Below, in pieces: positions 35,647-36,603 of a stretch of 64,000 bases of DNA. A program made the translations under genes and the position numbers. The first letter of the stretch is position 1. Every line of letters begins with the position of its first letter. The notes beneath the pieces were generated by a model. It searched no databases and was not told where the DNA came from. It was given only the letters and a program-made list of their open reading frames with translations. The DNA lies in NCBI RefSeq assembly GCF_054482525.1, contig NZ_CM137006.1; one strand, 5' to 3'.

Positions 35647-36603
35647 TTAGTACTCGATCCAAGGATCGCGCTTGCTTTCAGGCAAGGGCTGCTCTAATGC
35701 CTGCATTTGCTCTGCCGAGAGTCCGGTATATCGTTGTATCCATTCAGGATCTGCCCCATTCTGCAACAACAATCGGAGGAGGCTCCGTTCCCCTTCTACT
35801 TTCCCTTCTTTCCTCCCCCTCTCCCTTCCCAACAGCCATCCATCATTATGAATTCGCTCTGCAATCGTCATTATTCGCTCCCTTTGTTGTGGCATTCGAC
35901 TGGTTAGTTCGCTGATAAACTCTTTAAAACGCGCTTCATCGCCAGTCAGTAAAATGTAATTTAACAGCGCAGTTATCTGGCTGTCATTAGCACACTCTGT
36001 AACCAGTAATAGTACCAGTTGGTCGATAAGCCCCATCAGATCGCGCTGGCGAATATGCTTTTGGATCAACTCCAACAGGGCGACTCTGCGATGCTGCACA
36101 ATCTCGTCGTCTGGCACGACAGTGACATCCACCAGCGGGAACGCGGCGGTATAAAGCTTCCGTGCGGTAGCCGGGTCGGCAAATTCGTCCAGCCAGCACA
36201 GGGACCAGGGATAAGGACTACGGCTACCGTGATAAAACAGCATCGGGATGACCAGCGGTAGCGGCCGGCGTTTATCATGCTCGATATGGCGCTGCATCAC
36301 CGCCATGGAATAGCGCATCAGGCGAAAGGCCATATGAATATCCTCACGGCTCTGATGTTCAATCACCACATAGATATAGCCATCACCTTCACGGGTCTCT
36401 ACCGACCACAGAATATCGGAGTGTAGCGCCCGCAATTTTTCATCGACGAAGCTGGCGGATTCCAGTTTTAAGGTGTCGAGATCGCACAATTCACGTAAAT
36501 CTATTGGTAAGTGGATCTCCATAAAATCCCGCGCGGTGTCAGGGTGGGTGAGAAAGGATTTAAATAATGCGTCATGCGGCGTACTGGTCGTGAAGTTTGT
36601 CAT
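35647..36603 (-). CDS. rpnD: Rpn-family recombination-promoting nuclease (PD-(D/E)XK, transposase_31-like), intact 318 aa
   Basis: YhgA-like N-terminus (HDALFKSFL...) and core DILW...[10 protein letters not shown]; equivalent K-12 locus is split yjiP/yjiQ, from memory. Confidence 0.75.

Follow-up and report, generated by a model that had tools for sequence, protein, structure and literature searches.

An intact, common rpnD allele of Escherichia coli with the layout of a predicted two-in-one toxin–antitoxin nuclease module

In Escherichia coli K-12, all five rpn genes contain an internal translation start that gives rise to a small C-terminal protein, RpnS, which neutralises the toxic long form (Zhong et al. 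2023, PMC10400941). The same work described, for every rpn gene, a transcription start inside the gene, as well as four-residue repeats in the region common to the long (L) and small (S) forms that vary in number between strains and tune the fit of S to L; neutralisation was demonstrated in RpnA, RpnB and RpnC only, and for RpnD the small protein and internal initiation were detected in strain MG1655 (PMC10400941 and a preprint strain table). For the long form, a Mg-dependent, Ca-stimulated DNA endonuclease activity has been demonstrated for RpnA only (PMC5350276). Against this background, we analysed the rpnD gene carried by a 64,000-nucleotide stretch of DNA (contig NZ_CM137006.1 of RefSeq assembly GCF_054482525.1; hereafter, the window). 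Its reading frame, orthology, catalytic residues, internal start with the accompanying Shine-Dalgarno (SD) sequence, repeat difference from K-12 and population frequencies were all computed here, and show that the window holds an intact, common rpnD allele, which probably encodes a complete RpnD_L/RpnD_S two-in-one toxin–antitoxin nuclease module.

The full-length frame (RpnD_L) occupies 35647..36603 on the minus strand, where a six-frame list of open reading frames (ORFs) gave one unbroken frame that opens at ATG, runs for 318 codons and stops at TAA—precisely the single uninterrupted 318-residue Rpn-family ORF described in an earlier note on this DNA. The encoded protein matched PF04754 (Transposase_31, YhgA-like) over residues 8–210 with 288.4 bits (cut-off, 21; E=3.5e-86), spanning positions 1–202 of the 203 in the profile, and TIGR01784 ('Rpn family recombination-promoting nuclease/putative transposase') with 168.9 bits (cut-off, 52.1). 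These two matches indicate that the ORF did not arise by chance. In the NCBIfam profile search, the RpnA equivalog NF007361 scored 377.9 bits, below its cut-off of 583, and the product is therefore a paralogue of RpnA rather than RpnA itself. The exact protein is known as WP_000181152.1, with the same RefSeq name as TIGR01784, from E. coli SCU-102, a strain that shows 2 differences from the window in 41.5 kb; this sequence occurs on 253 public contigs, and its 90%-identity cluster has 3918 members. Additionally, a precomputed PF27070 label stands beside PF04754 on most RpnD homologues and presumably refers to the C-terminal part.

In the window strain, rpnD stands in the order yjiS-yjiR-rpnD-mdtM-yjiN, just as in K-12, and, judged by its position between yjiR and mdtM and by its identity being highest to K-12 rpnD, the ORF is the rpnD orthologue: it shares 278 of 306 aligned residues (91%) with K-12 RpnD, against 53% of alignment columns with RpnA. 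In the MG1655 annotation, rpnD (b4584) is a pseudogene; the EC600 copy, identical to that of MG1655, is flagged 'internal stop' by RefSeq, and yjiP and yjiQ are listed as rpnD synonyms, with two UniProt entries, in a published table of genes (PMC9504249). The synonyms and the two accessions bear out the statement in the earlier note that the K-12 equivalent is annotated as two fragments, yjiP/yjiQ. Its expectation of a frameshift in K-12 had to be given up, since the alignment with MG1655 and EC600 stays in frame throughout; the lesion is a CAG-to-TAG nonsense change at codon 104 (36292..36294, minus strand), read as an amber codon in K-12 and as a glutamine codon in the window in both the DNA and the protein alignments. 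Because of this amber codon, K-12 makes no RpnD long form. Over the first 255 codons, 22 of the differences between the two alleles are synonymous and 12, among them the amber codon itself, are non-synonymous. The C-terminal domain of the K-12 allele is also shorter, by 36 bp (12 residues, or three repeat units), and pairwise DNA and protein alignment puts the additional segment of the window at 35802..35837 on the minus strand, a gap placement that is arbitrary within the repeats. Finally, the two proteins diverge in their last ~12 residues and at several positions beyond the repeats.

The residues known from mutagenesis to matter in RpnA are all retained in the window protein. Its Transposase_31/YhgA-like domain (35974..36582, minus strand) includes a predicted PD-(D/E)XK core at residues ~9–125, which we examined in an AlphaFold2 (AF2) model. 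An end-to-end alignment with the 292-residue RpnA of K-12, beyond which the window protein extends, ruled out a truncation relative to functional RpnA, a point that had been left to be checked together with the catalytic residues. All of the latter are present at RpnA numbering, namely D11 (codon at 36571..36573), D63 (36415..36417), E82 (36358..36360), Q84 (36352..36354) and R94 (36322..36324), with every codon on the minus strand and those of D63, E82 and Q84 falling within 36352..36417. The PDDEI motif is formed by P164-D165-D166-E167-I168, such that D165 of RpnA corresponds to D166 here. As is typical of the family, a glutamine replaces the lysine of the PD-(D/E)XK active site, which thus reads D63, E82 and Q84. 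The catalytic columns are at least 90% conserved among 107 family members, in an alignment that reaches down to ~30% identity and on which the AF2 model was also built. In RpnA, recombination, toxicity and SOS phenotypes were all lost upon introducing D11A, D63A, E82A or Q84K; R94A and Q84A were altered, and D165A, in PDDEI, was hyperactive (Kingston et al. 2017, PMC5350276). The AF2 model of the window protein, with a mean predicted local distance difference test (pLDDT) score of 91.6, displays a helix at residues 34–39, strands at 40–47, 62–70 and 73–83, a helix at 91–109 and a strand at 117–125. The predicted core thus follows the order alpha-beta-beta-beta-alpha-beta, in which D63 would open strand 2 and E82 and Q84 would close strand 3.

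Comparison of nine alleles yielded a ratio of non-synonymous to synonymous substitution rates (dN/dS) of 0.06–0.16 for the N-terminal 244 codons—a value around 0.1 that points to purifying selection on the nuclease domain—and a dN roughly 7-fold higher in the 43-codon C-terminal tail than in these 244 codons. Moreover, K-12 yjiP from which the premature stop had been removed raised RecA-independent recombination (Kingston et al. 2015, PMC4498929), and the repaired K-12 RpnD counted among the paralogues with the highest toxicity and the fastest SOS induction (Kingston et al. 2017, PMC5350276). By extension from the activity of the repaired allele and from the selection on the N-terminal part, the earlier proposal that the intact copy may retain nuclease activity is well supported for the window allele.

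The earlier note, sound on the intact frame, had missed two features that are central in the current literature: a nested RpnD_S frame and a difference in repeat number. The predicted antitoxin RpnD_S would extend from M245 to Y318 (74 residues; 35647..35871, minus strand) and is delimited by alignment with M244 of RpnA and by an internal SD sequence. Its start is an in-frame ATG at 35869..35871, and the sequence AGGGAG, read directly at 35878..35883, lies 6 nt upstream of it on the same strand. The anti-SD duplex energy at M245 is -7.6 kcal/mol, the strongest among the in-frame candidate starts of the gene, and that of the annotated full-length start is half of it (-3.8 kcal/mol). M245, in the context 'MTIAERI', aligns with M244 of RpnA ('MTIAERL'), which is residue 1 of the crystallised RpnA_S (PDB 7TH0). 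This structure was recovered only by querying with the C-terminal 49 residues of RpnA itself; a phmmer search of PDB sequences with the full-length window protein gave no matching chain, and Pfam scans of three RpnS sequences returned sub-threshold noise only. A candidate internal promoter (ATGACA, an 18-nt spacer, TG and TAAATT; 35958..35987, minus strand) is located ~87 nt upstream of M245 and is identical in K-12; it is a sigma-70 consensus match only, and the region contains 3 matches of this kind where chance predicts 2.5. Separately, a 16-nt inverted repeat between the 5' leader and codons 15–20 was examined as a possible regulator of long-form translation and discarded, as its fold does not exceed shuffled sequences in stability (z = -0.77) and the pairing is weakened in K-12.

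Within the nested frame, the codon listing reveals a tetrapeptide repeat tract of five G-x-x-x units from G255 to S274 (35782..35841, minus strand), which opens 11 residues past M245 and is thereby inside the range of 8–20 residues given for RpnS repeats (PMC10400941). The length of the tract varies between strains in steps of 4 residues: K-12 has two units (GYIK GEQR), as do B2 strains, and we counted three units in F690, four in LY180 and five in both the window and ATCC 25922. Tandem Repeats Finder detected no DNA-level array in rpnD, since the 12-nt units are too degenerate for it; the repeats are accordingly defined at the protein level. In the AF2 model, C-terminal helices at residues 238–281, 286–293 and 297–303 are predicted with a pLDDT of ~90, and the repeats lie within the continuous first helix. 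The model fits a C-terminal three-helix bundle, as described for crystallised RpnA_S (PMC10400941), with a long, repeat-bearing helix 1 that additional repeats would lengthen.

To place this allele within the species, we surveyed complete E. coli genomes. A 41-mer centred on the K-12 TAG codon was found in 339 of 5426 genomes, and its CAG version in 3517 of the 5426; the TAG-bearing rows that we sampled were laboratory derivatives of K-12 (MG1655, DH1, DH5a, J53, EMG2 and C600 types). As a separate observation, strain H10 (NZ_CP010176.1, 4503957..4503995) carries the K-12 amber 41-mer with one mismatch in a genome of 4.8 Mb (K-12, ~4.6 Mb), and may represent either the TAG codon on a different background or a K-12 hybrid. 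Length classes were examined in a systematic sample of 60 rows from the 4231 genomes that matched the C-terminal 285 nt of the window gene. The largest class in this sample was that of the window, with 285 nt matched and 318 residues (20 of 60 rows), followed by classes of 314 residues (273 nt matched; 17 rows), 306 residues (249 nt; 11 rows, six of them K-12 derivatives) and 310 residues (261 nt; 1 row). Six further rows, matched over 217–218 nt (query positions 1–254 only), represent proteins of 306 residues with a divergent 3' end, and both alleles of this class that we fetched (LF82 and E686) come from loci without mdtM. The remaining rows were four frameshifted copies of the O157:H7 type (286 nt matched) and one partial match, truncated by an IS1 insertion. 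Representatives of every intact class are annotated as normal coding sequences (CDSs), and longer RpnD variants of 321–322 residues exist in public data. At least 95% identity to the window over the C-terminal region was found in 1406 genomes (33%), and at least 99% over the C-terminal 285 nt in 21 genomes only. Thousands of genomes hold rpnD as a single copy in one and the same chromosomal location (median, 1 place per genome). The CAG and TAG counts, together with the CDS-annotated length classes, thus indicate that intact rpnD is the rule in the species: it is the ordinary E. coli state and K-12 the exception, as already published (Kingston et al. 2015).

A second loss of the long form was apparent in O157:H7, in which rpnD is a pseudogene owing to a 25-bp tandem duplication, ATAATGACGATTGCAGAGCGAATTC, at gene nt 730–779 that includes the internal ATG. 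The lesion was read in Show KS 470-1 (L008, 229..1186) against F690 (L009): the long frame breaks near residue 255, and the second copy of the ATG opens a complete 66-residue RpnD_S frame. The duplication is present in about 283 complete genomes, a figure obtained as the excess of places over records (2647 places minus 2364 records) because unduplicated genomes report as two joined pieces. Judged by their sequences, the O157:H7 duplication and the K-12 amber codon are alike in that each removes the predicted toxin form and spares the antitoxin frame; a duplication that keeps the RpnD_S frame is an only mildly new observation. One could speculate, with little confidence, that these two unrelated lineages lost the toxin form independently and that, if the losses were selected, RpnD_S has its own function—such as immunity to paralogous Rpn toxins or to those that come in from outside—with the classes of two, three, four and five repeat units acting as non-cross-reacting specificity groups.

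On the basis of the paralogues and of the repaired K-12 allele, we infer for the window allele DNA cleavage, a toxic effect, its neutralisation through RpnD_S and a part in defence, and regard the following mode of action as the most likely one. The N-terminal part of RpnD_L (318 residues) would act as a metal-dependent PD-(D/E)XK endonuclease with little sequence specificity, and its C-terminal part as a helical oligomerisation domain. RpnD_S (74 residues) would be translated in the same frame from M245 by means of its own strong SD sequence and, by analogy with RpnA, RpnB and RpnC, bind the matching C-terminal domain of RpnD_L and restrain the nuclease until it is set free by a trigger, probably phage infection. 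The choice of S partner for each L would depend on the five G-x-x-x units in helix 1. K-12 lost the long product only, through the amber codon at position 104.

Several points weigh against this proposal. There is no promoter-like site upstream of the full-length start, the SD sequence of which is weak (-3.8 kcal/mol), and 11 N-terminal positions, together with much of the C-terminal domain, set the window allele apart from the repaired K-12 protein. RpnA_L and RpnD_L were undetected at native level in K-12, and antiphage activity has been demonstrated only for the plasmid-borne RpnP2 (PMC10400941); the amber codon accounts for the lack of detectable RpnD_L. The annotation of the window strain shows neither restriction nor defence genes in the vicinity of rpnD, with no defence gene within 10 kb of it, and a search of PADLOC-DB 2.0, a 2023 library whose content of Rpn models was left unchecked, produced no family at E<=0.01.

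Part of this evidence would also suit an intact but quiescent gene, with a product as feeble catalytically as RpnE or with a long form so poorly expressed that only RpnD_S is made. The weak SD sequence of the full-length start and the absence of a promoter-like match upstream favour such a reading, and long forms were seen at native level in K-12 only for RpnB, RpnC and RpnE (PMC10400941). Furthermore, an intact paralogue, RpnE, was inactive in all three assays applied to it (Kingston et al. 2017, PMC5350276), and two lineages tolerate the loss of the long form. However, an inactive copy would not be expected to conserve all catalytic residues, a nuclease-domain dN/dS of ~0.1 across divergent alleles speaks for continued selection on the long protein, and RpnD, with its K-12 stop repaired, proved to be one of the most toxic paralogues (PMC5350276). 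We therefore regard quiescence as unlikely.

The remaining alternatives concern the role of the protein rather than its integrity. The database names 'putative transposase' and 'ISNCY family transposase' would make RpnD the transposase of a mobile element, as the Pfam name Transposase_31 and the top-scoring NCBIfam match, NF007418 ('ISNCY family transposase'), might suggest. This identity was rejected, and we give it almost no credence: NF007418 scored 397.5 bits, below its cut-off of 583; neither terminal inverted repeats nor flanking direct repeats, as element ends or target duplications, surround rpnD; the gene keeps to one fixed chromosomal site per genome (median, 1 place); and the rpn genes have been concluded not to encode transposases (PMC10400941). 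A doubtful but more serious contender is that RpnD, encoded at the border of a variable island, promotes RecA-independent recombination and the gain of genes by horizontal transfer instead of serving phage defence. Over-expression of RpnD increases RecA-independent recombination by 4.5- to 4.7-fold (PMC4498929/PMC5350276), and the gene borders strain-variable segments on both sides, with a penicillin acylase gene in the window where K-12 has a restriction cluster, and with mdtM and yjiR lost or replaced in B2 strains. Conversely, the hypervariable repeats and the toxin–antitoxin layout suit a conflict system better (PMC10400941), and deletion of rpnA-D left basal recombination unchanged in K-12—a result that is uninformative for rpnD because the K-12 copy was already broken. 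On present data, a recombination-promoting role as opposed to one in defence cannot be separated from the two-in-one module that we favour.

The surroundings of rpnD differ in several respects from those in K-12. Between yjiA and yjiS, the window contains a single penicillin G acylase gene (30754..33294, minus strand), at a position where K-12 presumably has its restriction cluster of mrr, hsdRMS, symE, mcrBC, yjiV and yjiT; in the K-12 strain that we examined, only yjiT was seen beside yjiS. Between tsr and btsT (~15787..26913), the window contains a complete 4-hydroxyphenylacetate (hpa) catabolic cluster, which is not known from K-12 and whose adjacency to the acylase gene is known from E. 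coli W-type strains. In FDAARGOS_1262, DS566-1, LF82 and E686 (L010–L013), yjiN ends ~185 bp from the rpnD start, which means that mdtM is missing, and on the downstream side yjiR is cut short or has given way to symE or a DUF262 pseudogene; with variation on the mdtM side as well as on the yjiR side, rpnD is placed between segments that vary on both of its flanks. The rpnD-mdtM intergenic region also holds ytiE, an 11-codon ORF (VLMTICNRYTF; 36873..36908, plus strand) that is conserved base for base and is annotated in MG1655 upstream of mdtM. Farther away, all on the plus strand, we observed a 2.4-kb gene for a pentapeptide-repeat protein (42192..44591) between a DUF3343 gene (ytiA homologue) and a yjiK homologue, at a position where the MG1655 annotation has no gene; the 5.2-kb inverse autotransporter gene iatD (47146..52386) between yjiJ and kptA; and an ordinary set of three tandem tRNA genes (924..1243; tRNA-Leu in the SCU-102 record) beside rsmC.

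That most E. coli strains carry a complete rpnD is a published fact (Kingston et al. 2015) and has little weight by itself. What follows from it is that K-12 serves as a poor reference for this gene, since it can make the antitoxin-like short form only, whereas strains such as the present one would carry the full toxin-plus-antitoxin module with a different repeat count. An allele of this type would hence be preferable to that of K-12 for tests of chromosomal Rpn proteins in phage defence or recombination.

The closest known systems include the intact rpnD of other E. coli strains, from which the window allele differs only by point substitutions and repeat count. SCU-102 is an exact match; the ATCC 25922 allele (WP_000181180.1) is an intact CDS at the same locus, with the same length of 318 residues and the same tail, and that of LY180 (WP_000181170.1) is likewise an intact CDS at the same locus. 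K-12 rpnD (b4584) shares the locus, the start codon, the internal SD sequence AGGGAG and an identical M245 start, but departs from the window allele by its TAG at codon 104, by having two rather than five G-x-x-x units and by its tail. RpnA (YhgA) of K-12 displays the same domain order, the same numbering of D11, D63, E82, Q84 and R94, the PDDEI motif and an internal methionine in 'MTIAER', although only 168 of 318 alignment columns (53%) are identical to the window RpnD and RpnA_S has 49 residues against 74 in the predicted RpnD_S. With the RpnL/RpnS systems in general (PMC10400941), the window gene has in common a nested in-frame small protein, repeats that begin 8–20 residues past its methionine and a repeat number that varies between strains. 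In these systems, neutralisation was demonstrated for RpnA and RpnB, repeat-number matching for RpnC and phage protection for RpnP2, whereas RpnD is represented only by its small protein, detected in K-12.
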